From a bacterium (GTDB lineage Bacteria > JAUVQV01 > DATDCY01): DNA of 64,000 bases. The notes beneath the pieces were generated by a model. It was not told where the DNA came from, ran no database searches, and was given only the letters and a program-made list of their open reading frames with translations. The first letter of the stretch is position 1, and each line of letters begins with the position of its first letter. The position numbers were made by a program, and so were the translations under genes. The stretch is taken from the NCBI GenBank assembly GCA_036524115.1, contig DATDCY010000315.1, positions 41,917 to 105,916 of the forward strand, given 5' to 3'. This document shows, piece by piece, positions 26,326 through 46,280 of this stretch.

Positions 26326-26444
26326 CGGTCGGGCTGGCTCAGAAGGGGGTCACCATTTCGGGCCCGAGTATCGGGAGAGCGCCGGCCGAAGTCAAGTCGG
26401 GCCGGCCGTCGGGGACTCGCGAGCGGCACATGCCGCGACGCGCT

Positions 26445-26497
26445 TGACAGGCGCGGGTGATTCCCCTACTTTCTGGCATTCGTGGCGCCATGTTGAC
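26445..26497. promoter_or_regulatory. Divergent promoter region with two TTGACAGG repeats
   Basis: cgcTTGACAGGcgcg occurs at about 26445 and tgTTGACAGGacg at about 26490. They lie in the 190-bp gap between the ABC ATPase gene (minus strand) and the rSAM-SPASM gene (plus strand). Confidence 0.25.
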
Positions 26498-26515
26498 AGG
26501 ACGAGAAGCACCGCA

Positions 26516-30647: not shown

Positions 30648-30659
30648 GAGGATGAAGGG

Positions 30660-31035: not shown

Positions 31036-32643
31036 CTAGCCGGCTTCCTCGCCGGGGACGTCCCCCCGGCGCAGCAGCGTGATCACGTGCCCGTCGAGTT
31101 CCGCGTGGCGGGCTGCGACCGACGGTCCCGCGCCAAGGGCGACGCGGCTCTCCTCCGGCCCGATCTCCAGCACGCGCACCTGTCCCCAGGCAACGGCGAG
31201 GTCGATGCCCAGTACCTTGGCGGCGGCCTCCTTGACGGTCCAGACGCGCGCGGCCGCCGCGATCGCGCCGAGCTGCGACGACGCGACCAGCGTCTGCTCC
31301 GCATCGTCGGCGTAGAGCGGGAGGTTCTCGAGAAGACGGTCCTGGAGCGCTTCCACGTCCACGCCGACGGCCGTCTCCGCGGCCACGGCGATGGTGAAGC
31401 GCCGGTCGTGCGACACGCTGCAGCGCAGGCCCGTCCCGCCGGCCAGCGGCCTGACGCCGTCCCCGTCCAGCGTGTGGATGGCGGTCGCGGGGGTGCGCTC
31501 ATCGCCGGTCAGCCGGCGGAAGAGGCGTTTGCACGCGAGGCGTGAAGAACAATACGAGGTCCGGCGCCGCTCGCCCATCCCGGCCGTGCGCAGGCGCTCG
31601 GTCTCGGTGAGACACTGCTCCGCAAAGGGCATCAGCGTGGCCTGTTCGATGAGGACCACGGCGGCGCATCCCCGGGCGATCGGTCCGAGGGGATCCTCCT
31701 CCGCCCCGGCGCGGACCCACGCCGGCGGCTGCAGCGTCCCGCCGCTCACGTCGCGCATGGTCACCCCGTGGAGCACCTCGCACGGCTGGCCCGCCATGTC
31801 CAGGATCCAGATGTCGAAGGTCAGCACGCCCGCGGCGGCCCCCACGGGGAAGATCCGGCTCACGTAGGTGCCGCCCTCCGTGGGCCGCACGATCTCCCGC
31901 CGGCGGAAGCCCACGGGAAAGGCCACGATCCCCGCGTGCCGCTGGCTCCAGACGCAGGCGGCGTGCAGCGCGGCGTCGAGCACGAAGGGCGAGCCGAGGG
32001 GCGGCTCGGGCGCGTCCTGGCTGCGCGCGGGGGCGTCGATCACCGCGAGCGCCCCCTCGGGCGAGACGAACAGGGGGCGGGCGATCGTCCGGAACGCGGG
32101 GCCGAACGGGACGAGGTCCCGGTAGATCGCCTCCGGCTCCACCGTGAGGCAGCGGCCCGCGAGCGCGGCGGCGAGGTCCAGGGCCGCCGGGATCTCCGGC
32201 CGCTCTTCGGCGACGAACTCGACCTGCGCATGAACCCGCGTGCGCGTCATGCCGGAGGACCCGGCCGCCGTCCGCGTGAGCAGCGCGGCGCGCAGGGAGC
32301 CGTCGTCCAGCGGGCGCAGCTCGCACCAGGCCGCGATCGGGCCTCCGCCGCTTGGCAGCTCGAGGAACTTGTCGAAGGTCGCGTTGCGCAGGCGGCGCAC
32401 CGGCCGGCCCGGTTCGCGCTCGCGGACCCAGCCCGCCAGCAGCTGCATGGCCTCCACGGCCGGGAGCACGGCCCGCCCCTGGAAGCGGTGGTCGGCCCAG
32501 GCGGGCTCGACCGGGATCGTCACGGCCAGGCGGCCGTCGGGACCTAGCGGGGGAAGCGCGCCCACAACTCCAGGGTCTTCTCGTCGATGCCCACCGGGAT
32601 GCCCCTGGCGTTCACCGCGCAGTGCCGCGTGAAGCCGGTGCAC
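31036..32643 (-). CDS. Fusion of PKS-type dehydratase (double hotdog, HxxxGxxxxP) with C-terminal Sfp-type 4'-phosphopantetheinyl transferase
   Basis: The DH motif is PAWADHRFQGRAVLPAVEAMQLLAGW. PPTase motifs GVDVEALQ and WTVKEAAAKVLG lie in the C-terminal 120 aa. The ATG at 32643 would overlap the upstream thioesterase by 100 nt. A GTG at 32565 is an alternative. Confidence 0.6.
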   Translation of the reverse strand: MHRLHAALRGERQGHPGGHRREDPGVVGALPPLGPDGRLAVTIPVEPAWADHRFQGRAVLPAVEAMQLLAGWVREREPGRPVRRLRNATFDKFLELPSGGGPIAAWCELRPLDDGSLRAALLTRTAAGSSGMTRTRVHAQVEFVAEERPEIPAALDLAAALAGRCLTVEPEAIYRDLVPFGPAFRTIARPLFVSPEGALAVIDAPARSQDAPEPPLGSPFVLDAALHAACVWSQRHAGIVAFPVGFRRREIVRPTEGGTYVSRIFPVGAAAGVLTFDIWILDMAGQPCEVLHGVTMRDVSGGTLQPPAWVRAGAEEDPLGPIARGCAAVVLIEQATLMPFAEQCLTETERLRTAGMGERRRTSYCSSRLACKRLFRRLTGDERTPATAIHTLDGDGVRPLAGGTGLRCSVSHDRRFTIAVAAETAVGVDVEALQDRLLENLPLYADDAEQTLVASSQLGAIAAAARVWTVKEAAAKVLGIDLAVAWGQVRVLEIGPEESRVALGAGPSVAARHAELDGHVITLLRRGDVPGEEAG

Positions 32644-33029
32644 GCCAGGGCGCCGCCCTCGGCGTGGGTGATGACGTAATCGAACTGTGCCTTGACCCGC
32701 TCGAGCGTGGACGGACGCGTGTGGATGTACATCGCGTCGTCGTAGGTCAGCGGGCTGAAGTACTCCAGCCCCGTGGCGATGATCGGGTAGACGAAGCCGC
32801 TCGCCTCGACGTCCTTGTAGGTGTAGCCGGAGTCGCGCATCAGCGAGGCCCGCCCGAACTCGAAGTAGCGCAGGTAGTTCGAGTGGTAGACCACCTGGGA
32901 GCGGTCAGTGTCGGCATACAAGGTGCGCAGCTGGCAGCGGTGCCACACCAGGCCGCTGGTGCGGTCGCGCACGTAGTTCGCGGCGGCATCGCCGTCGAGG
33001 GGCTCGGGGCGAAACGGCTTCGGTCGCAC
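32544..33029 (-). CDS. 4HBT/YbgC-like acyl-CoA or acyl-ACP thioesterase
   Basis: Hotdog thioesterase signatures are present (VVYHSNYLRYFEFGRASLM, ...GFVYPIIATGLEY). Confidence 0.75.
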   Translation of the reverse strand: MRPKPFRPEPLDGDAAANYVRDRTSGLVWHRCQLRTLYADTDRSQVVYHSNYLRYFEFGRASLMRDSGYTYKDVEASGFVYPIIATGLEYFSPLTYDDAMYIHTRPSTLERVKAQFDYVITHAEGGALACTGFTRHCAVNARGIPVGIDEKTLELWARFPR

Positions 33030-33030: not shown

Positions 33031-34296
33031 CTACACGCCTCTGAAGACGACGCAGCAGTTGGTGCCGCCGAAGCCGAACGCGTTGGAGAGCAGGAACTCC
33101 TGGGCGTGGCGGCGCGCCTGCCTGGGGACGACGTCGATGTCGTCGAAGGCCGGGTCCGGGATGTGGTTGACCGTCGGGAGCACCAGCCCCCGGCGCATGC
33201 CCTCTATGCCGAGCGCCGCCTCGACGGCGGCCGCCGCCCCGAGGGTGTGGCCGATCTGGGACTTGTTGGCGGAGATCGGGATCTTCCCCAGGGCTTGCCC
33301 GAACACGGCGCGCAGGCAGGCCACCTCCACCGCGTCCCCCTTGGGCGTGGAGGTGCCGTGGGCGTTGACCGCGTCGATGTCGGCCGGCTCGAGCCCGGCG
33401 TCGTCGATCGCCTCGCGGATGGCCCGCACGATGGTCTCCTGGTTGGGCATCGTGAAGTGGTGGGCGTCGGAGGTCCAGCCGATCCCGGCCACCTCGGCCA
33501 GCGGCTTCAGCCCATGCTCGGCCAGCGCGGTGTCCGCCGCGAGCACCAGGACGCCTCCGCCCTCGGCCATGACGAAGCCCTTGCGGTCGACGCTGAACGG
33601 GCGGGAGGCCTGCGTGGGGTCCGCGAACGCCCGGTCGCCCTCCGTGACCTTGATGGTGGCCCACATGTTGGAGAACCCCTGGATGATCTCGGGGATCAGA
33701 CAGGTCTCCACGCCGCCGGCGAGCACGAAGTCGCAGTCGCCGTCCCGGATCATGCGCGCGCCGATGGCGATCGCGTGGTTGCCCGAGGCGCAGGCGCCCT
33801 GCGGCGAGAAGATCGGCCCGGTGAAGCCGAGCAGCATGCCGGCCTTGCCGGCGGGCACGTTCGCGCAGAGGTTCGGGAGCAGGTACGGGCTGACCTTCGT
33901 CGGGCCCTCCCGCGCCAGGTTCTCCACGGCGATGCGCATCGCGTCGCTGCCGTTGAGGGCGGAGCCCACGAGGCACGCCGTCCGCGGGCCGGTGCGCCCG
34001 TCCATGGCGAGCCCGGCGTGCGCCAGGGCCCGCTTGCAGAGGGCCATCGTCAGGAAGACGAAGTCGGCGTTCCAGCTGCCGGCATCCTTGGCCTTGACGA
34101 AGTCCAGGGACTCCGGACGCCAGTCGGGGATCTCCCCCACGACGTTGCTGCGCGAGTCGGTGGCGCAGCGCGTCACCCGCCGGAAGCCGGCCTCGCCGCG
34201 CACGGCGCGCTCCCAGGTGCTCTCGAGCGTGGAGCCAAGCGCCGTGGCCACGTCGTAGCCGACGACGTAGACCTTCCGGTTCAGCGGCGGCCTCAT
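33031..34296 (-). CDS. Beta-ketoacyl-ACP synthase (FabF/FabB-type KS, active Cys-His-His)
   Basis: The start is MRPPLNRKVYVVGYDV. Catalytic contexts are GACASGNHAIAIG, NAHGTSTPKGD and IGHTLGAAAAVEA. Confidence 0.85.
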   Translation of the reverse strand: MRPPLNRKVYVVGYDVATALGSTLESTWERAVRGEAGFRRVTRCATDSRSNVVGEIPDWRPESLDFVKAKDAGSWNADFVFLTMALCKRALAHAGLAMDGRTGPRTACLVGSALNGSDAMRIAVENLAREGPTKVSPYLLPNLCANVPAGKAGMLLGFTGPIFSPQGACASGNHAIAIGARMIRDGDCDFVLAGGVETCLIPEIIQGFSNMWATIKVTEGDRAFADPTQASRPFSVDRKGFVMAEGGGVLVLAADTALAEHGLKPLAEVAGIGWTSDAHHFTMPNQETIVRAIREAIDDAGLEPADIDAVNAHGTSTPKGDAVEVACLRAVFGQALGKIPISANKSQIGHTLGAAAAVEAALGIEGMRRGLVLPTVNHIPDPAFDDIDVVPRQARRHAQEFLLSNAFGFGGTNCCVVFRGV

Positions 34297-34330: not shown

Positions 34331-35581
34331 TCATGCGACCCGCTCGAAGACGACGCACGTGTTGCAGCCCCCGAACCCGAAGGCGTTCTTGAGCACGAAC
34401 GTCTGGTCGACCCGCCGGGCGCCCTCGGCCACGCAGTCGAGCGGCAGCTCCGGGTCGGGCCGATGGTTGATCGTCGGCGGCAGCATGCCCGCGAGCATGC
34501 CCTCGAAGGCGAGGACGGACTCGATCGCGCTGGAGGCGCCCATCGCATGGCCCGTGAGCGACTTGTTCGCGGTCACCGGCGGCAGAGCGTCGCCGAAGAC
34601 CTCCCGCAGCGCGTCGTACTCCACCTTGTCGCCCACGCGCGTCGCCGCGGCGTGCGCGTTGACCGCGTCCACGTCGCCGGGCGCCACCCCGGCCTGGTCC
34701 AGGCTCTCGCGGATGCAGCGGCGCACCGTGTCGAGGTGCGGCGCCACGAAGTGGTGGGCGTCCGACGTCATGCCCCAGCCGGCGACCGCGATCCGGTAGT
34801 CCAGGCCGTGGGCGCGGGCGAACTCCTCGGCGGCGAGGACGACGCACCCGGCCCCCTCCGACACCACGAACCCGCGCCGGTGCGCGCTGAAGGGCCGGCT
34901 GGCGGCCTGCGGCGGCTCCTCGGGCTGCCCCTCCTTCGGGACGTAGGCGCCGTTCATCGTGGCGAAGCCGGCGACGATCGGCTCGACGAGCGCGAAGTCG
35001 GCCGCGCCGCAGAGCACCACGTCCGCCCGGTCCTGCGCCAGCAGCAGCGCGCCCACGGTCATGGAGGTCACGCCCGTGGCGCACGCCGTCACGGTGCTCA
35101 CGATCGGGCCCGTGGCGCCGGTGTGCATCGAGACCTTGCCGCCGACCATGTTGATGCAGGAGTTCGGGTTGACGCAGGGCAGCGGCAGCGTGCCGTCGGC
35201 GACGAGCTTGCGGTCGGCGGCGAGCACGGCGTCCAAGCCGCCCACCGCCGAGCTGTAGGTGATCGCCACGCGCGGCGCCAGTTCCGGCGTGATCCGGAGG
35301 CCGGAGCGGGCGAGGGCGCGCTCGACGGTGACGAGCGCGTACTTGAAGATCGGCGAGGGCCAGCGGGCCTGCTCGCGCGGCTTGAGGAAGTCGTAGGGCA
35401 GGTGGTCGATGTCCGGGGCCTGGCCGGCGATCTTGACGGGGAAGTCGTCGCCGGCCGCAAAGCGGGTCAGCCGCCCGACGCCGCTCTCGCCCCGCAGGGC
35501 GCGCTGCCACTGCCCGTCCAGGTCGAGCCCGAGCGGGGAGATCGCGTCGTAGCCGACGACGACGGGACGCCTGCCGAGCAA
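34331..35581 (-). CDS. Beta-ketoacyl-ACP synthase paralog
   Basis: RPVVVGYDAISPLG, TACATGVTSM, NAHAAATRVGD and TGHAMGASSAIE are present. The probable TTG start lies 9 nt after the upstream rSAM stop. Confidence 0.75.
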   Translation of the reverse strand: MLGRRPVVVGYDAISPLGLDLDGQWQRALRGESGVGRLTRFAAGDDFPVKIAGQAPDIDHLPYDFLKPREQARWPSPIFKYALVTVERALARSGLRITPELAPRVAITYSSAVGGLDAVLAADRKLVADGTLPLPCVNPNSCINMVGGKVSMHTGATGPIVSTVTACATGVTSMTVGALLLAQDRADVVLCGAADFALVEPIVAGFATMNGAYVPKEGQPEEPPQAASRPFSAHRRGFVVSEGAGCVVLAAEEFARAHGLDYRIAVAGWGMTSDAHHFVAPHLDTVRRCIRESLDQAGVAPGDVDAVNAHAAATRVGDKVEYDALREVFGDALPPVTANKSLTGHAMGASSAIESVLAFEGMLAGMLPPTINHRPDPELPLDCVAEGARRVDQTFVLKNAFGFGGCNTCVVFERVA

Positions 35582-35589: not shown

Positions 35590-36588
35590 CTACCAGGGCA
35601 GGAACTTGTAGAGCTTGGCGAACATCTCGTAGACCTCGATCCAGTTCTGGAGGTCCCTGGTCGAGGCCATGTGGGCGCGCTTGTTGACCATCACCCAGCT
35701 CATGTGGGCCGCGCCGTCCTTGCACGTGGAGCAGTCGCGCGTCTCCGAGGTGCAGCAGCGGTGCATGGTCTTGAGGTCCGAGGCCCAGCGGATGAAGTTC
35801 GTGAGGTGCTTCGGGGCCGGGTCGCGCTTGTCGAGCGGCTGGGTCACCGACGGGCACTCCATCCAGCCGAACGGCCGGCCGAGCATCATCCCGGTGGTGA
35901 TGACCTCGTGGTAGTACTTGGAGCTGATGACCGTCTCCGGGTAGGCATCGAGCATGGCGTCCATCTCGGCGCGGATGGCGGTCAGCTCCCCGGGCTTCCA
36001 GCTGAAACCCGAGACCCCCTCGTCGTTGGAGAGCAGCTGCATGTGCACCTTGAGGCCTGCGTCGCGGATCTTGCGGATGATGCGCTCGGTCCGGCCGATC
36101 TGCTTGGGCGTGATGGTGAAGAGGTAGTAGGTGTAGGGGTCGCCCTCGTAGTTCTTGCTGGAGATGGCGAAGGTGTCCCTGCCACGCAGCACGCGCTCGT
36201 CCTGCTCGTCGCCCCAGAGGGAGATGCCGACCATCAGGTCCGGGAAGCGGTCGCGGGGCACCTTGATCAGTCCGTTGGACGCGCAGAAGGTGGGGAGCCG
36301 CTTGTAGAACGCCTCCACGCGGTCGAGGCAGAGCGTCGGCTCGCCGCCGATGAGGATGGCGAGGTTCACGCCCCGTTCCATCTCCCGGTCGACGAACGCC
36401 TCCCACTCGGCGACGTCGGTCTCCTCCGGGGCGGCCTTGTGCTCGTTGGACGAGAAGAAGAAGCACCCCTTGCACCGCAGGTTGCAGCGGTTGGTGACGT
36501 CGTAGATGGAGCTGCGGATGTTGAGCCGGGAGATCTTCCGGTAGCGCTCGTGCCAGTGCTCGTCCAGGAGGGAGCTGATTGTCTTCAT
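35590..36588 (-). CDS. Radical SAM enzyme (non-B12), C-terminal Cys cluster
   Basis: CNLRCKGC and ILIGGEPTL are present. The C-terminal cluster is CCTSETRDCSTCKDG. The ORF is 332 aa. Confidence 0.8.
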   Translation of the reverse strand: MKTISSLLDEHWHERYRKISRLNIRSSIYDVTNRCNLRCKGCFFFSSNEHKAAPEETDVAEWEAFVDREMERGVNLAILIGGEPTLCLDRVEAFYKRLPTFCASNGLIKVPRDRFPDLMVGISLWGDEQDERVLRGRDTFAISSKNYEGDPYTYYLFTITPKQIGRTERIIRKIRDAGLKVHMQLLSNDEGVSGFSWKPGELTAIRAEMDAMLDAYPETVISSKYYHEVITTGMMLGRPFGWMECPSVTQPLDKRDPAPKHLTNFIRWASDLKTMHRCCTSETRDCSTCKDGAAHMSWVMVNKRAHMASTRDLQNWIEVYEMFAKLYKFLPW

Positions 36589-36602
36589 CGGGAGTGTTGG
36601 TG

Positions 36603-37652
36603 CTAGTCGAGCCCGAAGCCCGGTGGCGCCGTCATCCTTTCGCAGAGATTCCGGCCCTTAGTATAGTCCACGACCCAGACGGCGAGGTAGGTGTCGACGT
36701 AATCCAGCCAGGAGCGGAAGGTGTCGGGGTCCGTCGCGTGCCGGAAGAGGCGCGCCGTGACCACCGCGCTGCCGGCCGCGTAGTGGCGGCAGTCGGGGCA
36801 GTCGGTGTCGGGGACGCAGCAGGCGGCGTCCCGGTCCCACTCCAGGTCCGTGCGGTACTGGCGAAATGAGCGTCCCAGGCCTAAGTCCGTGGACGGGTTC
36901 CGGCGGGGGTACGAGCAGCCGAACAGGTCGTGCAGCCCCAGCCGGTGGGTGTGGGCCACGGCGTTGTAGGGCGAGAAGAGCACGTGGTCGGGGTGGCGCG
37001 CCAGCAGCTCGGTCATCGTCCGCCGGGTGCGGGCCAGCGACTCGGGCGTGTGACGCAGGCGGCCGCTGTAGCCGACGGGCGCGGAGAACATGTTGAACGT
37101 CACCTTGCAGTCCTCGCGCGCCAGGGTCGCGACCACGTCGCCGGCCTCGTCGATGTTGTGCGGGGTGAAGGTGTAGACGAAGACGGCGCGGGAGTCGCCC
37201 TTGTAGTTCTCGATCTGGCGGGCGAGCATGTGCCTGGCGCCGCGGATGCGCGCGCTGGTCTCGTCGTTGCCCCAGACCGAGACGTGGATCCGGTAGCCCA
37301 CGGCGCGGGGGATGTGCATGATGCCGTTCGAGGCGATGGCGCCCAGCGGCATCTCCTCGTGGCACACCCGGAGCAGTTCGGGCACGAGGGAGGGCTCGGC
37401 GCCGGCGAGCACCACGTAGGTGATGCCGCGGTCGCGCTCGGCGCGCATGAGGGCGCGCCACGCGTCGGGGTCGCCGTGCTCCGCCGCGTGCTGCTTGTCC
37501 CCCTCGAAGTAGTAGCAGCCCTCGCAGCGGATGTTGCAGCGGCGGGTCATGTCGTAGGTGGACTCGCGGAGGAAGAAATAGCGCCGCACGCGCTCCCACC
37601 GGGCCCTGACCTCCGGTTCCGCGGTCAGGGCCGCGAACGTCCACTCCGCCAT
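36603..37652 (-). CDS. Radical SAM enzyme, paralog of 35590..36588
   Basis: CNIRCEGC and VLAGAEPSL are present. The C-terminal cluster is CCVPDTDCPDCRHY. The start MAEWTF lies 8 nt after the upstream ACP stop. Confidence 0.8.
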   Translation of the reverse strand: MAEWTFAALTAEPEVRARWERVRRYFFLRESTYDMTRRCNIRCEGCYYFEGDKQHAAEHGDPDAWRALMRAERDRGITYVVLAGAEPSLVPELLRVCHEEMPLGAIASNGIMHIPRAVGYRIHVSVWGNDETSARIRGARHMLARQIENYKGDSRAVFVYTFTPHNIDEAGDVVATLAREDCKVTFNMFSAPVGYSGRLRHTPESLARTRRTMTELLARHPDHVLFSPYNAVAHTHRLGLHDLFGCSYPRRNPSTDLGLGRSFRQYRTDLEWDRDAACCVPDTDCPDCRHYAAGSAVVTARLFRHATDPDTFRSWLDYVDTYLAVWVVDYTKGRNLCERMTAPPGFGLD

Positions 37653-37660
37653 CGTGCGGG

Positions 37661-37933
37661 CTAGGCCCCGGCCGCCAGCTTGCCGTGGATGTACTGGGAG
37701 ATCAGGCGCAGGGTCTTGAGCTTCGGGTAGTCGTCCTCGTCGATGCGTACGCGGTACTGGTCGCGCAGCACCAGCGCCACGGTCGCCAGGTCCATGCTGT
37801 CGACGCCCACCTCGTCCACGAGGTCCAGGTCGGGGTCGAAGGTCTCGGGAGTTACGTCCTCGAGCTTCAGCTCCCTGATCATGATCCCGGCGATGTTGAG
37901 GATCAACTGGTCCAGTTCCATTGCTACAGCCAT
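37661..37933 (-). CDS. Acyl carrier protein-like
   Basis: VDEVGVDSMDLATVAL carries the Ser context. The ATG at 37933 is preceded by a GGGGGGG Shine-Dalgarno-like run. Confidence 0.6.
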   Translation of the reverse strand: MAVAMELDQLILNIAGIMIRELKLEDVTPETFDPDLDLVDEVGVDSMDLATVALVLRDQYRVRIDEDDYPKLKTLRLISQYIHGKLAAGA

Positions 37934-38023: not shown

Positions 38024-38404
38024 CTAACGCTCCACGCTCTTGACCACCATCGTCCCGCTGCACACCGGCGTCTCCCCCCTGGTGATCCGGAAGGCGTACG
38101 CCCCGTCGCGGCCGGGGCGCGGCTCGGCCGACACCTGCAGCTGCTCGCCCGGCAGGATCATCTGCTTGAAGCGGACGCGGCTGACTTCCGCCACCCGCGC
38201 GGGCAGGCCCAGGGCGGACTGGATTAGATCGGCGACCATCGCCAGCTGCGCGATTCCCGGCAGCACCGGCTGACCGGGAAAATGGCCGTCAAACCAGGGA
38301 GAATCAGCGGGGACCCACACGTCAACCATTAGAGCGCAATCGCCTCGTCGTATGTCGGCTGCCTTGTACCACAGAGGATTTGTTCCTGCAAATTGTTCGC
38401 TCAT
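38024..38404 (-). CDS. Hotdog-fold 3-hydroxyacyl-ACP dehydratase (FabZ/APE-type)
   Basis: PWFDGHFPGQPVLPGIAQLAMVADL is present. The ORF is 126 aa. Confidence 0.75.
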   Translation of the reverse strand: MSEQFAGTNPLWYKAADIRRGDCALMVDVWVPADSPWFDGHFPGQPVLPGIAQLAMVADLIQSALGLPARVAEVSRVRFKQMILPGEQLQVSAEPRPGRDGAYAFRITRGETPVCSGTMVVKSVER

Positions 38405-38503: not shown

Positions 38504-39868
38504 TCATCGCACGAGGTGCTCCCACAGGGGGCCGGACCGGCCGCGCTGGTGCATACGCTGGAGGATGGCCGTCGCGGCGTCCCCGCCGGAGGCCTCGACC
38601 CAGTTGTCCCGCCCCCGGGCCCGCTTGGCCAGGGCCTGCGCGATCGCGGGAAGGGTGATCCCCGCCGGCTGGTAGAACACCGGTTCCACGATGTTCGCTC
38701 CGGCGGCGATCTGCCCCTCCCGCACGGCCAGTTCGTGCAGGGGCGTGTTCGGGTAGATGCGCATGCCGCCGAAGAGGAAGAGAACGGTCCTCTCGAGCGT
38801 CTCGATCTGCGCCAGGGTGTCGGCGAACGTCTCCTCCGTCTCACCGGGGCCGCCGAAGAGGAGGTAGTGGGCCACGTGCAGGCCGGCGGCCCGCGCGGCG
38901 CGGTGGGCGGCCAGCACCTCGCTGCGGCGGAAGGGCTTGCCGTAGGCCTTCAGGACGCCGTCCGTCAGGGACTCCGTGCCGAATTCCACGTGCCTGAGCC
39001 CGCAGGCGGCCATGGTCTCGAAGTAGCCCTCCGGCAGGGCGACGGGCGCGAAGAAGCCGCCCCAGGGGATCGTGAGGCCGTGCTCCCGGAAGGCGCGGGC
39101 GACCTCCAGGCTGTGTCCCACGTCGGCGTTGAACGCCGAGTCGGTGATGAAGAGGTACCGGGCCCCCGCCTCCTGGAGCCGCAGGGCGGTGGCCGCCACC
39201 TCGTCGACCGGCGCGTGGCGCAGGCGCCGGCCCTCGATGCGCGGGTAGGTGCAGTAGACGCAGCGGAACGGGCAGCCGCGCTTGGTCTGGAGATTGAGCA
39301 TGCCGCCGTTGCGCAGGTAGAAGTCCACGTGCCCGGCCCGCGCGTCGAAGCGGCGCCTGACGGACTGCGGCCAGGGCTCCGGCGCGGGCAGCGGCGGCCC
39401 CGCGTCCGCCCCGCTCCGGGTCACGACGCCCGGCAGGCCGGCCGGGTCCAGCCCCGCGGCCAGCGCCTCGAGCAGCGCTTCGAGCCGCTCGCCCTCGCCG
39501 ACTATTCCGTAGTCGGCCTCCAGCAGTTCCATGGCTTCGCCCGGGAAGATCGTGAAGCCGCTGCCCCCCAGCACGATCGGCGCCCCGCTGCAGCGGCGGA
39601 CGCGAAGGGCGAGCTGGCGATAGTCCCCCATGTAGCTGCGGGGGGCGCGGCTGTCGGTGTTGTCTGCGTTGCGGAGCGAGAGCCCGATGACTTCGGGGCT
39701 CCATTCGGCGACGGCGCGCTCCAGCGCCTGGTCCTCGCCCAGACAGTTGAGGTCCAGGCAGCGCACCTCGTGCCGCGCGGAGATGGACCCCGCCACGTAG
39801 TCGAGGCCCAGCGGGTAGACCGGGAACGGCTCGCGCACGGTGTTGACGGAGAGCAGGAGCACTCTCAT
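38504..39868 (-). CDS. B12-binding (class B) radical SAM enzyme
   Basis: An N-terminal B12-binding-like Rossmann segment is present (MRVLLLSVN...VIGLS). The rSAM cluster is RGCPFRCVYCTYP. The ORF is 454 aa. Confidence 0.85.
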   Translation of the reverse strand: MRVLLLSVNTVREPFPVYPLGLDYVAGSISARHEVRCLDLNCLGEDQALERAVAEWSPEVIGLSLRNADNTDSRAPRSYMGDYRQLALRVRRCSGAPIVLGGSGFTIFPGEAMELLEADYGIVGEGERLEALLEALAAGLDPAGLPGVVTRSGADAGPPLPAPEPWPQSVRRRFDARAGHVDFYLRNGGMLNLQTKRGCPFRCVYCTYPRIEGRRLRHAPVDEVAATALRLQEAGARYLFITDSAFNADVGHSLEVARAFREHGLTIPWGGFFAPVALPEGYFETMAACGLRHVEFGTESLTDGVLKAYGKPFRRSEVLAAHRAARAAGLHVAHYLLFGGPGETEETFADTLAQIETLERTVLFLFGGMRIYPNTPLHELAVREGQIAAGANIVEPVFYQPAGITLPAIAQALAKRARGRDNWVEASGGDAATAILQRMHQRGRSGPLWEHLVR

Positions 39869-42027
39869 CGCGGCCCGACCATCACGGCGGAGGAGGAGAG
39901 GCCGAGGCCCAGCAGCAGGACGCCCCGGCCGCCGAGGGGGACATCGACCCCGCCGGCGAGGGCGGCCGGGACGAGCTGGTCCCGGACCATCCGGTGCGCG
40001 AGGACCGCCGCAACCGCCGAGGCCGCGCCGAACTGACCGATGGCGCGGCGATAGTCGATCACGGGCCTATCGAAGCCGCTGGCCGCCACGAAGGCCGCCA
40101 GGTCGCGGGAGGCCGCCTCGGCGTGCCCGGCGGGGATGCCGGCGAGGATGGCGCCGACGGTGTTGCGGACGTTCCCGGCCCCACCCGCGGCCTCGAGCAG
40201 CGCCTGCATCGCGTCCGCCCCCGAATCGCCGCGATACGCCAGGAGGGCGACCGTGGGCTCGTCGCCGCGCGCCCGCCGCAGCAGCAGCGCCCCGCCCCCG
40301 TCGGCCGGCGGGGTGCCGCGCACCGAGTCGTCGAACAGCGGCGCCAGCGACGGATGGCCCTCGTCGACGCCGAGCACGAGGACCGCCTGGCCGGGGTCGC
40401 CCGCCAGCAGATCGGCCGCCAGCAGCGCCTGCTCGAAGGAGGCGTCGCCGCCCGTGGTCGTGACGTTGGCCCCCCGGGCGCCGAGGTGCATCGCGATCTG
40501 GCCGGCTGGCGCGTTGTGCACCGAGCCGACGAAGTCCGTGGGGGAGGGGAACCGCTGCCGCGTCTCGAAGAGCCGGCGCAGGAAGTCGTGCGTCTCCGAG
40601 AGCGCGCCCCAGGCCGTGCCGAGGCAGACGGCCATGGGCCCGGCGCCGGCGGGCGCGCCGTGACAGGCCTCGGTCGCCAGGGCCAGGGCCAGCCGCGACA
40701 GACGCTTGAGTCGACGGACGACGCGCGACGGCAGCTCCCCGCAGATCGCCTGCTCGTCGAGGCAGCCGGCGCAACTGCCGCCCGCCGCGAAGCGCTCCCA
40801 GGTGGCGCGCGTGCCGCCGGCCCCGGTCAGGCAGGCGGCGGCAGCGATTGCCAGTGCGGGCGGACGCGGTGGCATCGCGCGAGCGGTCCCGGGCCGGGCC
40901 CTGCCGATCACCAGCGCCGCGTTGTTCCCGCCGAACCCGAAGGAGTTGGAGAGCACGGTGCCGATGCTCCGCCGGACAGGCGCCGTCACCGGGTCCAGCT
41001 TCAGCTGCGGATCGACGTTCTCCAGTCCCGCGTTGGCCGGTGCGAAGCCCTCGTTCACGGCCAGGGCCGAGACCACGGCTTCTATCGCGCCCGCCGCGGC
41101 CAGACTGTGTCCGGTCGCCCCCTTGATCGAGGAGAGAGCGGGCGGGTGATCCCCGAAAAGCGAGACGACGGCCCGCGCCTCGGCCAGGTCGTTGTCCTCG
41201 GTGCCGGTGCCGTGGAGATTGATGTAGTCGATTTCCTCGGGCGCCACGCCGGCGTCGGCGAGGGCGGCCCGCATCGCGGCGATCGCCCCCAGGCCCTCGG
41301 GGTGGGGCGCCGCCGGGTGGTGGGCGTCGCACGACAGGCCGGCCCCCAGTAGCTGCGCGCCCCCGCCGGCGGGCGGATCGCTCGTGAGCAGGAGCAGGGC
41401 CGCGCCCTCCGCCACCGACATGCCGTGCCGGTCGCGGTCGAGCGGGCGGCTGCCCCGCGGGTCGATGAGCTGGAGGGAGTGGAATCCGAAGTAGGTCAGG
41501 CGGCAGAGGCTGTCGGCGCCGCCGGCCAGCACCCGCCGCGCCAGCCCGCGGCGCAGCATGGCCATCGCGAGGGCGATCGCCACGGCGCCCGACGAGCAGG
41601 CGGTGGAGACGGTGATGAGCGGGCCGCGGCAGCCGCAGCGCCGGGCAAGCAGCTCGGCCACGGTGCCGGCGCCGTGATGGCGGTAGGCGGCCGGGTCCTC
41701 GCAGCCGCCTTCCAGCAGCGTCTCGGTGCGCAGGATGCCGCCGGTCGTCGTGCCCAGGACGATGGCGTCGACCGGGCCCGGGGCGCCGGCCAGGGCCTGG
41801 TCCGCGGCAAGGCAGGCCAGACGGTGTGTGCGGGGGAGGCGTTCGCCTTCGTCCTCCGCGAGGTCCACCGCCCCGACGGGCAGGTCGTTCCCGGATTCGA
41901 TGGGGAAGATTCGCAGCGGCCCCAGCCCGCGTCGTGCTTCGAGCAGGGCCGACAGCGTCTGGTCCGTGCCGCTCCCGAGGGCGCCGATCACCCCCATCCC
42001 GGCGATGGAGACCGGGCCACCGCTCAA
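39865..42027 (-). CDS. Ketosynthase fused to a Cys-less KS-like (chain-length-factor-like) domain
   Basis: The N-terminal half has VSIAGMGVIGALG, TACSSGAVAIA, NLHGTGTEDND and GATGHSLAAAGAIE. The C-terminal half has KS-like LAIAAAACLTGAG...RRLKRLSRLALALATEA but no active-site Cys (VHNAPAGQIAM). No stop lies between the halves in this frame. The TTG start overlaps the ACP stop (TTGA). Confidence 0.65.
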   Translation of the reverse strand: MSGGPVSIAGMGVIGALGSGTDQTLSALLEARRGLGPLRIFPIESGNDLPVGAVDLAEDEGERLPRTHRLACLAADQALAGAPGPVDAIVLGTTTGGILRTETLLEGGCEDPAAYRHHGAGTVAELLARRCGCRGPLITVSTACSSGAVAIALAMAMLRRGLARRVLAGGADSLCRLTYFGFHSLQLIDPRGSRPLDRDRHGMSVAEGAALLLLTSDPPAGGGAQLLGAGLSCDAHHPAAPHPEGLGAIAAMRAALADAGVAPEEIDYINLHGTGTEDNDLAEARAVVSLFGDHPPALSSIKGATGHSLAAAGAIEAVVSALAVNEGFAPANAGLENVDPQLKLDPVTAPVRRSIGTVLSNSFGFGGNNAALVIGRARPGTARAMPPRPPALAIAAAACLTGAGGTRATWERFAAGGSCAGCLDEQAICGELPSRVVRRLKRLSRLALALATEACHGAPAGAGPMAVCLGTAWGALSETHDFLRRLFETRQRFPSPTDFVGSVHNAPAGQIAMHLGARGANVTTTGGDASFEQALLAADLLAGDPGQAVLVLGVDEGHPSLAPLFDDSVRGTPPADGGGALLLRRARGDEPTVALLAYRGDSGADAMQALLEAAGGAGNVRNTVGAILAGIPAGHAEAASRDLAAFVAASGFDRPVIDYRRAIGQFGAASAVAAVLAHRMVRDQLVPAALAGGVDVPLGGRGVLLLGLGLSSSAVMVGPR

Positions 42028-42299
42028 CTGGTGAGCCTCGGGGACTTCTCCTGGATGTAGCTGGCGAGCGTCCGCAGGGAGGCGAAGACCCTGGCGCCCA
42101 GCTCCTTGTTGTCGATGACGACCCCGTAGTCCCGCTCGATCATGACGACCATTTCCAGGGTGTCGATGGAGTCGATCCCCAGGTCGCCGCCGACGAGCCG
42201 GCCGTCCAGGGGGATGTCGGCGGGGGTGACGTCCGGGAGGTTGAGGATCTGAACGATCTTGACCCGCAGCGCTTCGATCAGCGTGTCCATGTCCTCCAC
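42024..42299 (-). CDS. Acyl carrier protein
   Basis: GGDLGIDSIDTLEMVVMIERDYG is present. The ORF is 91 aa. Confidence 0.8.
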   Translation of the reverse strand: MEDMDTLIEALRVKIVQILNLPDVTPADIPLDGRLVGGDLGIDSIDTLEMVVMIERDYGVVIDNKELGARVFASLRTLASYIQEKSPRLTS

Positions 42300-42316: not shown

Positions 42317-42766
42317 ATGGGCGCCGAGGGGACGCAGGGCGGTCCGAACGTGGACCTCGAGACGCTCGTACCCCATCGCGGCCGCATGCTGCTGCTCTCG
42401 GAGATCGTCTCGTTCGATACGGACGAGGCCACCTGCCGCGCCGTCGTGCGCGAGGGCTGGCCGCTGACCGGGGAAGGCGGCGCCGACCCGCTGGTGCTCA
42501 TCGAGCTGGTTGCCCAGACGGCGGCGGTCAACAACGGCTGGAACATCATCCAGACGCAGGAGCCGGGGCGGCACCACCGCGGCTGGATCGCGGGCATCAA
42601 GAGCGCCCGGCTGGGGGTCGACCGCATCGCCCTCGGCACGGCGCTGACGACCCGGGCGCGGAACCAGTTCGCCTACGAGGAGTTCCGCGAGATCGAGGGC
42701 ACGGTCAGCATCGGCGCGGAGGTCGTGGCCGAGGTGACGCTGCAACTCGTGCAGGCGGCGCCGTGA
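42317..42766 (+). CDS. Hotdog-fold dehydratase (FabA/FabZ-like, APE-type)
   Basis: LVPHRGRMLLLSEIVSFD...LIELVAQTAAV is present. The ORF is 149 aa. Confidence 0.7.
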   Translation: MGAEGTQGGPNVDLETLVPHRGRMLLLSEIVSFDTDEATCRAVVREGWPLTGEGGADPLVLIELVAQTAAVNNGWNIIQTQEPGRHHRGWIAGIKSARLGVDRIALGTALTTRARNQFAYEEFREIEGTVSIGAEVVAEVTLQLVQAAP

Positions 42767-43500
42767 CGGACGCTCCCGCATCGCCGGCCGCGCTCGTCAC
42801 GGGCGGCAGCAAGGGCATCGGGCGCGCCATCTGCGTGGAGCTGGCCCGCGTCGGCTACGAGGTGATCGTCAACTACCACTCCGACGCCGACGGCGCCCGC
42901 GAGACCGTCGCCCAGATCGAGGCCGTGGGCGGCAAGGGCAGCTGCGCCGGCTTCGACGTCGCCGACGCCGAGGCGACCGGCCGGGCCATGGAGGAGATCT
43001 TCGCGGCCCACCCCGCGGTGGACGTGCTCGTCAACAACGCCGGCCGCGTCGCGGACGAACTGTTCGTCATGATGAAGCCGGAGGCCTGGCGCAGCGTGAT
43101 TGACGTCACCCTCCAGGGCTTCTACAACGTGACGAAACCGGTGCTGGAGAAGATGGTTGTGCACCGCAGGGGCGCGATCGTCTCGATCGCCTCGGTCTCG
43201 GGCCTCATGGGCAACCGCGGGCAGGCCAACTACGCCGCCGCCAAGGCCGGCCTCATCGGCGCCAGCCGCTCCGTGGCCGCCGAGGTCGCGCGCCTGGGCA
43301 TCCGCGTCAACGTCGTGGCACCCGGCCTGATCCAGACCGCGATGATCCAGGAGGCGCCGGTGCAGAAGATCAAGGGCCTCATCCCGATGGCCCGCGTGGG
43401 GACGCCCGAGGAGGTGGCGCGGGTGGTGCGGTTCCTCTGCTCCGAGGACGCCAGCTACGTCACCGGCCAGGTTCTGTCGGTGAACGGGGGGATGTTCTGA
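42763..43500 (+). CDS. fabG: 3-oxoacyl-ACP reductase (SDR, FabG-like)
   Basis: TGGSKGIGRAI...NNAG...YAAAKAG...PGLIQTAM is present. The GTG start overlaps the upstream stop (GTGA). Confidence 0.9.
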   Translation: MTDAPASPAALVTGGSKGIGRAICVELARVGYEVIVNYHSDADGARETVAQIEAVGGKGSCAGFDVADAEATGRAMEEIFAAHPAVDVLVNNAGRVADELFVMMKPEAWRSVIDVTLQGFYNVTKPVLEKMVVHRRGAIVSIASVSGLMGNRGQANYAAAKAGLIGASRSVAAEVARLGIRVNVVAPGLIQTAMIQEAPVQKIKGLIPMARVGTPEEVARVVRFLCSEDASYVTGQVLSVNGGMF

Positions 43501-44765
43501 ACCTCAAGCTCATCTATCCGCGCTGGCCGAAGCTCATGAGCCAGACGGAGTTCCACCTGCCGCCGCACGGCCCGGTCGTCATGGCCGCCGCCCTGCCGCC
43601 GGATGTCGCCGTCACCTTCGTCGACGAGAACGTGGAGGAGCTGGACCTCGACGATCGCCCCGACGCGGTCGCCATCTCCATGATGCTCACCAGCCAGGTC
43701 CGGCGCGGCTGGGAGATCGCCGACGCCTACCGCCGCGCGGGCGTGCCGGTCGTCTGCGGCGGGATCGCCACCATGCTGCACGCCGAGGAGACGCAGACGC
43801 ACGCCGACGCCGTCTTCCTCGGCGAGGCCGAGGGGCGCATGGAGACGCTCGTCGACGACCTGCGCCGCCGCCGGCTCAAGCCGGTCTATGACTACCTGCG
43901 CCAGCCGCCGCCCATCGAGATCGTGGGCACCGCCCGGCGCGACATCCTGCGGCGGGAGCTCTACAACTACCGGGGCGTGCAGATGGTGGATCTCGTGCAC
44001 GCCTCGCGTGGCTGCCGCTACAACTGCTACCCCTGCTGCGTCTCCTACCTCGGCGGCCGCGTGTTCCGGCCCCGGCCGATCGACCGGACCATCGCCGAGA
44101 TGGCCGCCATCGACAACAACCGCCTCTTCATCGTGGACAACTCGCTGGCCCAGGACCGGAAGTGGGAGCTGGACCTCTTCCGCGAGATGATCCCCCTGAA
44201 GAAGAAGTGGTGCTGCCACCCCATCGAGGACGACCCCGAGGTGCTCGACCTGGCCGCGCAGGCCGGCGCCTGGTACGTCTACCAGGCGGTCTTCGACACC
44301 TCCGACTACATCCGCGAGCGCATCCGGCGCTACCACGACCACGGCATCGGCGTGGAGGGCACCATCCTGCTCGGCCTGGACGAGCACACCGAGGACGACA
44401 TCAAGCGCCTCGTCGACTTCCTGCTGGAGATCGAGCTGGACCTCGCCGAGTTCACGGTCCTCACGCCGTTCCCCCACACCCGCGCCTACGAAGACCTGCA
44501 GCGCGACGGGCGCATCCTCTCGCACGACTGGAACGACTACACCGCCGACAAGGTCGTCTTCCAGCCCAAGCAGATGAGCGCGGAGCGGCTCCAGGAGCTG
44601 CTGGCGTACGCCTGGGACACCTTCTACCGCGACGAGCCCCAGCCGATGAAGATGTCGAAGCTCTTCACGAGGGTGATCCGCAAGGAGATGGCCGACGGCA
44701 CCGCCCGCCCCCGCCAGCGGGAGCTGCGCGGCCGGGCGTTCGGGAAGACGGTTGGGGGGATGTGA
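43476..44765 (+). CDS. B12-binding (class B) radical SAM enzyme
   Basis: SRGCRYNCYPCCVSY is present. The conserved N-terminal LKLIYPRWP lies upstream of the first ATG (43536). I therefore propose a GTG start at 43476 overlapping the fabG 3' end. The ATG-only model is 43536..44765. Confidence 0.75.
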   Translation, partial: VGERGDVLNLKLIYPRWPKLMSQTEFHLPPHGPVVMAAALPPDVAVTFVDENVEELDLDDRPDAVAISMMLTSQVRRGWEIADAYRRAGVPVVCGGIATMLHAEETQTHADAVFLGEAEGRMETLVDDLRRRRLKPVYDYLRQPPPIEIVGTARRDILRRELYNYRGVQMVDLVHASRGCRYNCYPCCVSYLGGRVFRPRPIDRTIAEMAAIDNNRLFIVDNSLAQDRKWELDLFREMIPLKKKWCCHPIEDDPEVLDLAAQAGAWYVYQAVFDTSDYIRERIRRYHDHGIGVEGTILLGLDEHTEDDIKRLVDFLLEIELDLAEFTVLTPFPHTRAYEDLQRDGRILSHDWNDYTADKVVFQPKQMSAERLQELLAYAWDTFYRDEPQPMKMSKLFTRVIRKEMADGTARPRQRELRGRAFGKTVGGM

Positions 44766-44786: not shown

Positions 44787-46280
44787 TCAGCCGTCCAGCT
44801 CCTCGAACCGGTTCGCCGCCCTGAGCCGCGCCATCTCGCGCTCGTAGCTCGCGCGCCAGCCGATCTTCCGGCGGCGGCGGCCGAGCACCACCTTGAGCAC
44901 GGGGCGCACGAGGTAGAGCCAGATGCCGATCCAGAGCGGCCCCTGCATGCGCGCATGGCGGGAAGGCTCCCACCAGCCCAGGACCTGCTGGCGCTGGTAC
45001 CAGACCAGGTACTGCAGGGCGTCGGCGTCCAGGTGCCGGGTCCGCACGTTCGCCCAGATGCCGTTGTAGGTCGAGAAGTCGTCCGCGTTGGTGACCAGCC
45101 CCTCGTCCAGCAGCTGCTGGCGGATGCCGGTCTTGGGGTACGGCGTGAGTATCTGGCAGTAGGGGGAGTCGACGTCGACCTCCTTGAGGAAGCGGTAGTT
45201 GTCGATGAAGTCCTGCTCCTCGTCGTCGGGGAAGCCGAAGATCATGCCCCCCACCACCATGATGCCGTACTTGTGGCACAGTTCCACGGCCCTGCGGGAG
45301 GCGTCGAGGATGTCCCCCTTCTGGGCGGCCTTGAGGTTCTTGCGGGAGGCGCTCTCGATCCCCAGGAAGATGCTCTTGAAGCCCGCGCGGGCCATCAGGG
45401 CAACCATCTCCTCGTTGCGCGACATGGTGACGCAGTCGGCCTGGACGACGAAGTGCATGCCGCGGTAGGCGCGCTCGATGATCGCCTTGCAGATCTCGAT
45501 GACCCGCGGGGGCGAGAGCACCATGTTGTCGTCGGAGACGAAGACCCAGCGGCAGCGGCGCTTGTGGTAGATATCGTCGATGTCGGCCAGGATGCGCTCG
45601 ATCGGGAACGGCCGGAAGGACTGGCCGTACATGTGCCGGATGCTGCAGAAGTTGCACGAGCGGTTGCAGCCGCGGGAGGTCTCCATGACCTCCACGCTGC
45701 GGTTCATGATGTGGTAGCCCCACGTCAGGCGCCGCTTGTCGCGGATGGGCAGCTTCAGGCGCGCGAGGTCCAGCAGCTCGCCCTTCGGGTTGTGCACGAG
45801 CGCGCCGTCCGCCCCGCGGTGCGAGAGAGAAGGGATCGCGGCGACATCGTCCCTGCCGGCCAGCGCGTTGACCAGGCGCCGGAAGCACTCCTCGCCCTCG
45901 CCCCGCACGAGGAAGTCGATGTCCCGGGCCCCGGGGTCGCGGCCGATCTCCTCGTACATCAAGGTGGCGTGGTAGCCCCCGACCACGATCCTGGCCTGCG
46001 GCAGCCACTGCCTGACCAGGCGCGCGATCTTGAGGCAGGTGCCGAACTGCCAGGTCATCGACGAGAGGCCGACGACGTCGGGGCGCAGCTTGAGCAGGGT
46101 CCGCTGGAGGTACCCGCGCACGGTGCCACGCTTGCGGACGAGATCGACGAGGAAGACCTCGTGGTCCTCGTCCAGGTTGGCGCCCAGGCTGGCGATGCCG
46201 AGATTCGGCATGTGAAAGGCGGCCTCGTGCATGATGACCGCGGCGACGTCCGGCATGGAAGCGAGCACCACCCTCATTGC
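44787..46280 (-). CDS. B12-binding (class B) radical SAM enzyme
   Basis: The start is MRVVLASMPD...VVGLS. The rSAM cluster is SRGCNRSCNFCSI. The ORF is about 497 aa. Confidence 0.85.
   Translation of the reverse strand, partial: AMRVVLASMPDVAAVIMHEAAFHMPNLGIASLGANLDEDHEVFLVDLVRKRGTVRGYLQRTLLKLRPDVVGLSSMTWQFGTCLKIARLVRQWLPQARIVVGGYHATLMYEEIGRDPGARDIDFLVRGEGEECFRRLVNALAGRDDVAAIPSLSHRGADGALVHNPKGELLDLARLKLPIRDKRRLTWGYHIMNRSVEVMETSRGCNRSCNFCSIRHMYGQSFRPFPIERILADIDDIYHKRRCRWVFVSDDNMVLSPPRVIEICKAIIERAYRGMHFVVQADCVTMSRNEEMVALMARAGFKSIFLGIESASRKNLKAAQKGDILDASRRAVELCHKYGIMVVGGMIFGFPDDEEQDFIDNYRFLKEVDVDSPYCQILTPYPKTGIRQQLLDEGLVTNADDFSTYNGIWANVRTRHLDADALQYLVWYQRQQVLGWWEPSRHARMQGPLWIGIWLYLVRPVLKVVLGRRRRKIGWRASYEREMARLRAANRFEELDG

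Follow-up and report, generated by a model that had tools for sequence, protein, structure and literature searches.

Two radical-SAM paralogs encoded between an acyl carrier protein and a ketosynthase in Desulfobacterota: a candidate for anaerobic radical chemistry on carrier-bound chains

Why should two diverged radical S-adenosylmethionine (SAM) enzymes be encoded side by side between an acyl carrier protein (ACP) and a ketosynthase (KS), and on what could they act? This question is raised by positions 35,590 to 37,933 of a 64,000-nucleotide stretch of the bacterial contig DATDCY010000315.1 (assembly GCA_036524115.1), hereafter the window, in which the two paralogs, here called rSAM-A and rSAM-B, follow the carrier protein gene ACP1. 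Our analysis suggests that the pair may act on the chain bound to ACP1, helped by an auxiliary iron-sulfur cluster; we hold this reading with middling confidence, and all functional claims made below on the pair rest on comparative genomics. As far as sequences can tell, the pair is a well-conserved and testable candidate for a new anaerobic radical chemistry on carrier-bound chains.

The core operon and its conservation

The core consists of three genes:

37661..37933, minus strand: ACP1, acyl carrier protein of 90 aa (PF00550, E=4.7e-8, 33.6 bits against a cut-off of 20.8)
36603..37652, minus strand: rSAM-B, radical-SAM paralog of 349 aa (motifs and homology to rSAM-A)
35590..36588, minus strand: rSAM-A, radical-SAM paralog of 332 aa (PF04055, 31.3 bits against a cut-off of 29.5)

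The sequence-only reading of this region had placed an ACP-like gene before the pair, and this is borne out: in addition to its PF00550 match, ACP1 carries the phosphopantetheine-attachment motif DSMD (residues 45-48, nt 37790-37801), and its best matches in the PDB are AcpM and other ACPs. ACP1 is annotated here as a genuine ACP, with the site of Ser phosphopantetheinylation predicted from the motif. The same reading had described tandem, diverged paralogs with the motifs CNLRCKGC and CNIRCEGC, and both enzymes are indeed found on the minus strand with these motifs, 27% identical to each other across 320 aa (BLASTP, E=4e-37). In rSAM-A the CX3CX2C motif CNLRCKGC occupies residues 35-42 (nt 36463-36486), the SAM motif GGEP residues 81-84 (nt 36337-36348) and the C-terminal motif CCx5DCxxC, which reads CCTSETRDCSTC, residues 278-289 (nt 35722-35757), with a further cysteine at position 245 (nt 35854-35856). 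In rSAM-B the corresponding elements are CNIRCEGC (residues 39-46, nt 37515-37538), GAEP (residues 84-87, nt 37392-37403) and CCx4DCxxC, which reads CCVPDTDCPDC (residues 278-288, nt 36789-36821), with a further Cys246. Thus, the C-terminal cysteine clusters noticed earlier are present in both proteins, but their spacing is x5 in rSAM-A and x4 in rSAM-B and not x5-6. With 26.8 bits on PF04055, rSAM-B stays slightly below the gathering score that rSAM-A exceeds; we nevertheless assign it to the radical-SAM superfamily because of its motifs and its homology to rSAM-A. A Pfam scan found no match to the cobalamin-binding domain PF02310 in either paralog. The window's rSAM-B is 100% identical to a protein recorded at NCBI in a metagenome-assembled genome (P0121).

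The genes are tightly packed, with spacers of 8 nt from ACP1 to rSAM-B, 14 nt from rSAM-B to rSAM-A and 8 nt between the stop codon of rSAM-A and KS1, the gene that follows, for which TTG at 35581 is the only plausible start codon. A KS gene closely behind the pair had been expected, and a FabF-like one is there; the spacer of 9 nt given for it has to be corrected by one nucleotide.

A search for relatives of rSAM-A in a collection of 5.8 billion proteins gave 1901 of them at E<=1e-3, the best 120 being 82-94% identical, and according to a genome scan it is encoded in at least 526 genomes at species level. Of these, 80 were retrieved, and almost all belong to Desulfobacterota, Desulfatitalea, Desulfosarcina, Desulfobulbales and Syntrophobacteraceae among them. 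Cultured bacteria with the operon include Desulfosarcina, Desulfatitalea alkaliphila, Desulfofustis glycolicus and Desulfogranum japonicum. ACP1, rSAM-B, rSAM-A and KS1 could all be located in 74 related loci, and they are syntenic, with short gaps, in every one of these (74/74); the median gap is 17 nt between rSAM-B and rSAM-A and 23 nt between rSAM-A and KS1. The DSMD motif of ACP1 is likewise found in 74/74 orthologous loci. The motifs CX3CX2C (20/20 A/B orthologs) and GGEP (A) or GAEP (B), the latter pair binding SAM, are conserved among orthologs, and the columns invariant in both paralog families are C35, C39, C42, G81, E83, P84, C278, C279, C286 and C289. That two active paralogs are maintained in an unchanging order suggests that they catalyze two consecutive steps or form a heterodimer.

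The conservation extends to five neighboring genes:

38024..38404, minus strand: HD1, ApeI/FabZ-like hotdog dehydratase directly upstream of ACP1 (PF22818, 36.8 bits; PF07977)
34331..35581, minus strand: KS1, FabF-like ketosynthase (PF00109 and PF02801; TIGR03150, 332 bits, below the cut-off of 494)
33031..34296, minus strand: KS2, second FabF-like ketosynthase (Pfam and NCBIfam scans)
32544..33029, minus strand: YbgC/4HBT-type hotdog thioesterase (TE) (PF13279; TIGR00051, 81.9 bits against a cut-off of 68.7)
31036..32643, minus strand: PKS-type dehydratase (PS-DH) fused to a 4'-phosphopantetheinyl transferase (DH/PPTase) (PF14765, E=6e-11; PF01648, E=1.5e-8)

The active-site Cys and His motifs of KS1 can be read directly in its sequence, and the best PDB matches of HD1 are 3esi and 6qsr. 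The true start of DH/PPTase probably lies downstream of 32643, GTG codons at 32565 and 32523 being the candidates. Of the 47 related loci that span 18 kb or more, all but two (L052 and L078) have the order HD1-ACP1-rSAM_B-rSAM_A-KS1-KS2-TE-DH/PPTase, and KS1 is always followed by KS2 in related loci; from this conserved order we conclude that the eight genes from HD1 to DH/PPTase form a functional unit. The core order persists without the genes that lie further upstream in the window, B12_1 and a KS fused to a chain-length factor (CLF) (e.g., in L011, L023 and L046). In the same long loci the identity to the window protein is 81-90% for rSAM-A, 66-82% for rSAM-B, 63-85% for KS1 and KS2 and 35-67% for DH/PPTase; rSAM-A is therefore the most conserved protein of the operon. 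The operon as a whole is, according to its predicted gene products, a self-contained unit resembling type II fatty acid synthase (FAS) and polyketide synthase (PKS) systems.

The C-terminal cysteines

As to the place of the pair among radical-SAM enzymes, 1.84 billion representative proteins were screened with a profile built from the two paralogs; 133 clusters reached E<=1e-30 and 413 reached E<=1e-10, and the family as a whole counts 2342 representative clusters at E<=1e-3. The family analyses were made on 64 full-length representatives, which include an A-type group of 14 and a larger B-like group of 43; PF04055 is matched at E<=0.01 by 53 of the 64. The motifs CN[LI]xCxGC and GxEP are conserved across them, CX3CX2C being invariant in 63-64 of 64. 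At the C-terminus, C278 is conserved in 98%, C286 in 97%, C289 in 98% and C279 in 75% of the representatives, and a further cysteine lies 20-45 residues upstream of the cluster in 61/64. The resulting four-Cys pattern, C-x21-36-C(C)-x4-7-C-x2-C, usually followed by Arg, is present in 61/64.

Two known architectures come into question. The SPASM domain (PF13186/TIGR04085) has a seven-Cys motif, CX9-15GX4C...CX2CX5CX3C...C, and binds two auxiliary clusters, while the twitch domain is a truncated SPASM with a single auxiliary cluster (e.g., in BtrN, SkfB and SpeY) and a C-terminal beta-hairpin and helix with 3-4 Cys. The sequence-only reading had suggested an auxiliary, twitch-like Fe-S domain at the C-terminal cysteines, and three lines of evidence speak for it. 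The first is the widely conserved four-Cys pattern itself. The second is a full-length profile alignment (hhalign) of the family with the canonical SPASM enzyme encoded elsewhere in the window (26276..27592), which has a probability of 97.5% over 274 columns and brings C278, C286 and C289 onto the last three cysteines of the SPASM motif CX2CX5CX3C. The third is the likeness to SPASM/twitch enzymes, closer than to any others, of a structural model built with AlphaFold2 (AF2) for rSAM-A only, on the 64-sequence alignment (mean predicted local distance difference test score, pLDDT, 91.6; predicted template modelling score, pTM, 0.91; residues 241-290 only 72-81); it superseded a model from a shallow 20-sequence alignment that had a pLDDT of 65 and a disordered C-terminus. 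In the final model a hairpin (234-239) is followed by Cys245 and then by C278, C279, C286 and C289 before a helix (292-300). The leading matches of a Foldseek search against the PDB, with E values down to 5e-10, are anSMEcpe, BlsE, SkfB, CteB, viperins, DesII, SuiB, EpeE, GDGT-MAS, AbmM and SpeY.

Several results weigh against such a domain. In place of the seven cysteines of SPASM, the family has only four or five conserved C-terminal ones. The SPASM model PF13186 is matched at E<=0.01 by 0/64 members, no Pfam model covers the C-terminal domain in any of the 64, and the NCBIfam matches of rSAM-A/B are all far below cut-off and confined to the N-terminal ~70 residues. The alignment with SPASM is weak when restricted to the C-terminal domain (probability 10.5%, E=0.003), the full-length Foldseek superpositions are loose (TM 0.5-0.58, root-mean-square deviation up to 9 A), and SkfB, the best PDB sequence match of the family profile (5e-18), is matched in the core only. 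Moreover, the structural neighbors of rSAM-A are mostly peptide- or sugar-modifying enzymes, which bears on the substrate question discussed below.

Taken together, profile comparison and model suggest a place for rSAM-A/B in the SPASM/twitch branch of the radical-SAM superfamily. Their C-terminal domain is probably a degenerate, twitch-like relative of SPASM that holds one auxiliary cluster, and the four-Cys site (Cys245/246 and C(C)x5-6CxxC) is the most likely place for this putative [4Fe-4S] cluster. The characterized SPASM/twitch enzymes (anSMEcpe 4k37, SkfB 6efn, CteB 5why, SuiB 5v1q and SpeY 7wzv, with the related BlsE 7vob and DesII 8hzy) share with rSAM-A/B the N-terminal CX3CX2C core and GGE motif, and with rSAM-A the Cys-rich C-terminal extension behind a beta-hairpin. 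In contrast to them, rSAM-A/B have no RRE domain, their signature CC-x4-7-C-x2-C-R is specific to the family, and their partners are an ACP and ketosynthases instead of precursor-peptide or aminoglycoside genes.

The alternative for this domain is that its cysteines bind zinc or are simply structural, so that the enzymes would be single-cluster ones and one of the paralogs might be mainly a scaffold. A four-Cys pattern suits zinc as well as [4Fe-4S], and the missing SPASM/twitch matches, the weak C-terminal alignment and the lower pLDDT of residues 241-290 just described are all compatible with it. However, the full-length alignment puts the cysteines on SPASM ligands, and the whole-fold neighbors are auxiliary-cluster enzymes; as for a dead scaffold, every catalytic motif is kept by both paralogs in all orthologs. 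We consider this alternative rather improbable. The choice between zinc and an iron-sulfur cluster is in any case independent of the question of substrate.

A relationship to the HpnH/DUF3463 (PF11946) or ArsS families, which had been proposed for comparison, was rejected, as Pfam and NCBIfam scans gave no match for rSAM-A, rSAM-B or any of the 64 members. We read rSAM-A and rSAM-B as ancient duplicates within a subfamily for which neither a curated model nor a solved structure exists.

Carrier-bound substrate and possible chemistry

As to the substrate, the proposal that the two enzymes act on an ACP-tethered intermediate is favored by the synteny described above and by the nine neighborhoods of relatives that were read. 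The metagenomic contig L086 encodes, at 4187-10853, the series KS-KS-B-A-ACP-KS, with the B-type protein at 46% to rSAM-B and the A-type one at 34% to rSAM-A; the tandem has the same order as in the window, but the ACP gene comes after it. The B-then-A tandem thus recurs in a distant lineage. Of single relatives, the B-type P0248 lies directly upstream of an ACP gene inside a glycan-modification cluster, the A-type P0398 overlaps a FAAL-ACP-KS gene beside a Pfa-like PKS, and the A-type P0407 is 4.5 kb from a PKS. The A-type P0288 (L088, 8001-10175) is a 724-aa fusion of a TubC_N docking domain, a thioesterase and a radical-SAM domain, encoded directly after a large modular PKS gene. However, four distant B-like members (from Ponticaulis, Beijerinckia and two metagenomic contigs) have neither a carrier-protein nor a PKS neighbor; therefore, dependence on ACP does not extend to every family member. 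The earlier proposal for the pair, like that of the auxiliary cluster, came through the in-silico tests made and gained from the comparative data, and we regard both as partly supported. On the evidence of gene context, the association with carrier proteins is strong for the A-type group and the close B-type members.

Two further observations concern the breadth of the family. The B-like members of L081 and L091 are found in glycan-modification clusters with sulfotransferases, glycosyltransferases and WcbI, an ACP gene being adjacent in L081 and none being present in L091, which hints at a second functional context. The 20 divergent representatives that were looked up bear generic names only, and their organisms are Ponticaulis, Sphingomonadaceae, Beijerinckia and an alphaproteobacterium, with no anammox organism among them.

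These contexts also bear on a different explanation, according to which rSAM-A/B would act on a free small molecule, i.e., a released lipid, a coenzyme A thioester or a sugar- or nucleotide-linked intermediate, and the adjacency of ACP1 would reflect co-regulation only. It draws on the small-molecule enzymes among the nearest structures (BlsE, DesII, viperin, AbmM and SpeY), on the distant members located among glycosyltransferase and sulfotransferase genes without ACP, and on the thioesterase encoded two genes downstream. Against it stand the invariant ACP1-B-A-KS1 order with very short spacers in 74 loci, the tandem of a distant lineage, which again has ACP and KS genes beside it, and the fusion of a relative to a PKS docking domain and a thioesterase, which places the radical-SAM domain on an assembly line. 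We regard a free substrate as unlikely.

A maturase function, in which the pair would target an amino-acid residue, in ACP1 or some other protein, rather than an acyl chain, is brought to mind by the best sequence and structure matches, since SkfB, anSME, CteB, SuiB, PqqE and EpeE are peptide- or protein-modifying enzymes. Yet rSAM-A/B have no RRE/PqqD-like domain and only ~25 residues before the core, no precursor-peptide gene was seen, and the SPASM model is matched by none of the 64 members. The canonical DSMD of ACP1 and the company of an own PPTase, two KS, dehydratases and a thioesterase argue in the same direction, and we believe this function to be very improbable.

Precedents for radical-SAM enzymes working on carrier-bound chains exist in other branches of the superfamily. 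One is LipA, a radical-SAM enzyme whose substrate is an acyl chain held by a carrier domain and which has an auxiliary [4Fe-4S] cluster; its sequence shows no detectable relationship to rSAM-A/B, and it probably differs from them in its chemistry and in where the auxiliary motif lies. The LipA precedent, together with the sulfur-metabolizing anaerobic hosts of the pair, could be taken to mean that rSAM-A/B insert sulfur into an acyl chain on its carrier in the manner of LipA and BioB, using up the auxiliary cluster as donor. However, NCBIfam and Pfam scans revealed no similarity to the LipA, BioB and MiaB families, and the auxiliary motif is situated elsewhere in the sequence, so we attach hardly any probability to sulfur insertion. 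The second precedent is Jaw5/C10P, a HemN-like radical-SAM cyclopropanase that works with an iterative PKS and modifies the growing carrier-bound chain between elongation rounds (PMC13459092). It demonstrates radical-SAM action on a carrier-bound polyketide, but belongs to another radical-SAM class (HemN-like class C methylases), and Pfam and NCBIfam scans detected no HemN-family match for rSAM-A or rSAM-B. SwfC, from the swf PKS clusters of sponge symbionts, was considered as a characterized relative and rejected, being a B12-type enzyme. No characterized ACP- or PKS-linked member of the family was found in the literature searched, the ChlB radical SAM domain, TE-rSAM fusions and sulfate-reducer clusters included.

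If the pair does act on the ACP1-bound chain, its action could be as follows. Holo-ACP1 would be made by the cluster's own PPTase, and the neighboring KS, ketoreductase (KR) and DH enzymes would build a short unsaturated or 3-hydroxy acyl chain on it. The two paralogs, in sequence or as a heterodimer, would then reductively cleave SAM, and the 5'-deoxyadenosyl radical would attack the tethered chain at an unactivated carbon and take a hydrogen from it. The substrate radical might add to a nearby double bond, resulting in C-C bond formation or cyclization, or it might give an electron to the auxiliary cluster, resulting in anaerobic desaturation. The modified chain would be extended by KS1/KS2 and released by the thioesterase, the end product being presumably a lipid or polyketide of Desulfobacterota. 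What makes C-C bond formation or cyclization plausible is the enzyme set of the cluster, in which we found dehydratases and a ketoreductase, but no enoyl reductase. The choice of cyclization or desaturation is nevertheless a guess, made from the absence of that enzyme and from general radical-SAM precedent, and this too counts against pressing the scheme.

A bolder and rather speculative version, to which we would assign a low probability, sees rSAM-B/A as in-line tailoring enzymes of a type II FAS/PKS, carrying out C-C bond formation without O2 (carbocyclization or cross-linking) on an ACP-bound unsaturated chain between elongations. A cyclic or rearranged lipid that has escaped detection would then be widespread in sulfate-reducing Desulfobacterota, and modular PKSs would have taken up the family as a new assembly-line domain, the TE-rSAM fusion being an example.

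Surrounding genes and ladderane-type clusters

The operon is a part of a wider supercluster, whose other genes are:

26276..27592, plus strand: canonical radical-SAM/SPASM enzyme, outside the core operon (PF13186, E=2.5e-10)
38504..39868, minus strand: B12_1, B12-binding radical-SAM enzyme of a 'lipid biosynthesis' family (TIGR04072, 380.8 bits against a cut-off of 360)
39865..42012, minus strand: KS fused to a chain-length-factor-like domain, aryl-polyene type (PF00109, PF02801 and PF13723; NF006618, 338 bits)
42024..42299, minus strand: ACP2, aryl-polyene-type ACP (PF00550; NF006617, 58.5 bits)
42317..42766, plus strand: ApeP-like hotdog dehydratase, divergently oriented (domain scans, as for all genes below given without a model)
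42763..43500, plus strand: FabG ketoreductase, divergently oriented (NF004200, 301.5 bits against a cut-off of 273)
43536..44765, plus strand: B12_2, B12-binding radical-SAM enzyme
44787..46277, minus strand: B12_3, B12-binding radical-SAM enzyme (PF02310 and PF04055)
47100-48338, minus strand: KS
48365-48706, minus strand: ACP
48724-49431, plus strand: SAM methyltransferase
52746-53270, minus strand: 4HBT thioesterase
54109-56265, minus strand: phytoene-desaturase-like amine oxidase
56441-57160, minus strand: GT25
57253-58671, plus strand: B12_4, radical-SAM enzyme

Two AMP-ligases and further methyltransferases also belong to the supercluster. The window shares with the type II PKS-like systems for aryl polyenes and flexirubin the ApeI-like and ApeP-like dehydratases, a PRK09185 KS, a PRK09184 ACP, a FlxB-like FabG and a 4HBT thioesterase. 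Unlike aryl-polyene clusters, which to our knowledge contain no radical-SAM enzymes, it holds seven of them in ~32 kb (one canonical SPASM enzyme, the A/B pair and four B12-binding ones), an unusually high density around FAS/PKS genes.

Another possible parallel is provided by the 'ladderane-type' FAS gene clusters, described for Kuenenia stuttgartiensis (kuste3335-3352, 3603-3608 and 2802-2805) and Desulfotalea psychrophila (Rattray et al., 2009, PMC2649909; Javidpour et al., 2016, PMC4790861). Ladderanes were not detected in D. psychrophila by Rattray et al. (PMC2649909), and the 'ladderane-like' clusters flagged by genome-mining tools in Desulfobacterota have no known product (PMC9902471). 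The Kuenenia proteins, with sequences taken from the supplement to Javidpour et al. (PMC4790861), were compared with those of the window and gave the following matches:

Kuste3342 to B12_1 (38504-39868): 34% over 405 aa, E=1.6e-79
Kuste3343 to the SPASM enzyme (26276-27592): 43.5% over 331 aa, E=6.7e-107
Kuste3608 to B12_2 (43536-44765): 29%, E=1e-44
Kuste2803 to B12_2 (43536-44765): 26%, E=1e-31

In view of the Kuste3342, 3343 and 3608 matches, the window is considered a Desulfobacterota counterpart of the putative ladderane clusters. It has in common with the Kuenenia clusters a phytoene-desaturase-like oxidase, a glycosyltransferase, SAM methyltransferases, AMP-ligases and multiple FabF and ACP genes, the oxidase being only 23-26% identical to Kuste3336 and Kuste3607. 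In contrast to the Kuenenia and Desulfotalea clusters as published, it adds the ACP1-B-A-KS-KS-TE-PPTase operon. rSAM-A/B have no full-length match among Kuste3342, 3343, 3608 and 2803, to which four proteins and not to whole anammox genomes the comparison extended; the best alignment, with Kuste3343, is 38% over 58 aa in the CX3CX2C region. Kuste3342 and Kuste3343, adjacent radical-SAM genes near an ACP, were considered as counterparts of the pair and rejected, as they match B12_1 and the SPASM gene. Since the A/B pair matches no Kuenenia candidate, the pair and its operon are an unreported part of the 'ladderane-like' clusters.

Radical-SAM chemistry on fatty-acyl and polyketide chains is very rare, and a 2026 review names only ladderanes, as a proposal, and the Jaw5 product (PMC13459092). 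The superfamily, the SPASM/twitch architecture and the type of cluster (noted in 2009) were known before; the A/B subfamily is different, and its link to carrier proteins and assembly lines appears to be undescribed in the literature searched. Should rSAM-A/B work on ACP-bound chains, they would represent a new oxygen-independent functionalization of unactivated lipid carbons, would point to a probably abundant lipid or polyketide of sulfate reducers, possibly of use as a biomarker, and would help to explain the products of the 'ladderane' clusters flagged in non-anammox bacteria. The anammox question itself becomes sharper, as the window shares Kuste3342-, 3343- and 3608-type enzymes, yet among the four Kuenenia radical-SAM enzymes compared there is no match for rSAM-A or rSAM-B.

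A scan of the whole window (1-64000) with Rfam gave no family at gathering score, and no cobalamin riboswitch despite the four B12-dependent radical-SAM genes; the promoter and terminator scan gave nothing informative. Several other features of the supercluster may be mentioned. The phytoene-desaturase-like oxidase has an N-terminal extension of ~230 aa without a Pfam match. Between the methyltransferase and the second thioesterase, an open reading frame of 706 aa (49496-51616, plus strand) has a strong coding-like GC content at third codon positions and no Pfam match. The region 29184-30923, which interrupts the supercluster between a methyltransferase and DH/PPTase, encodes a Fic/DOC protein (29184-30299, plus strand) followed by a toxin-antitoxin pair, ParE and Phd-YefM (30366-30647 and 30660-30923, both on the minus strand). 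Finally, the protein encoded at 22804-23802 (plus strand) consists of BtrH_N and DUF4872 domains (E=2e-43 and 3e-53), and because BtrH is the ACP-dependent acyltransferase of butirosin biosynthesis, it may, by analogy, be another ACP-using enzyme near the cluster.

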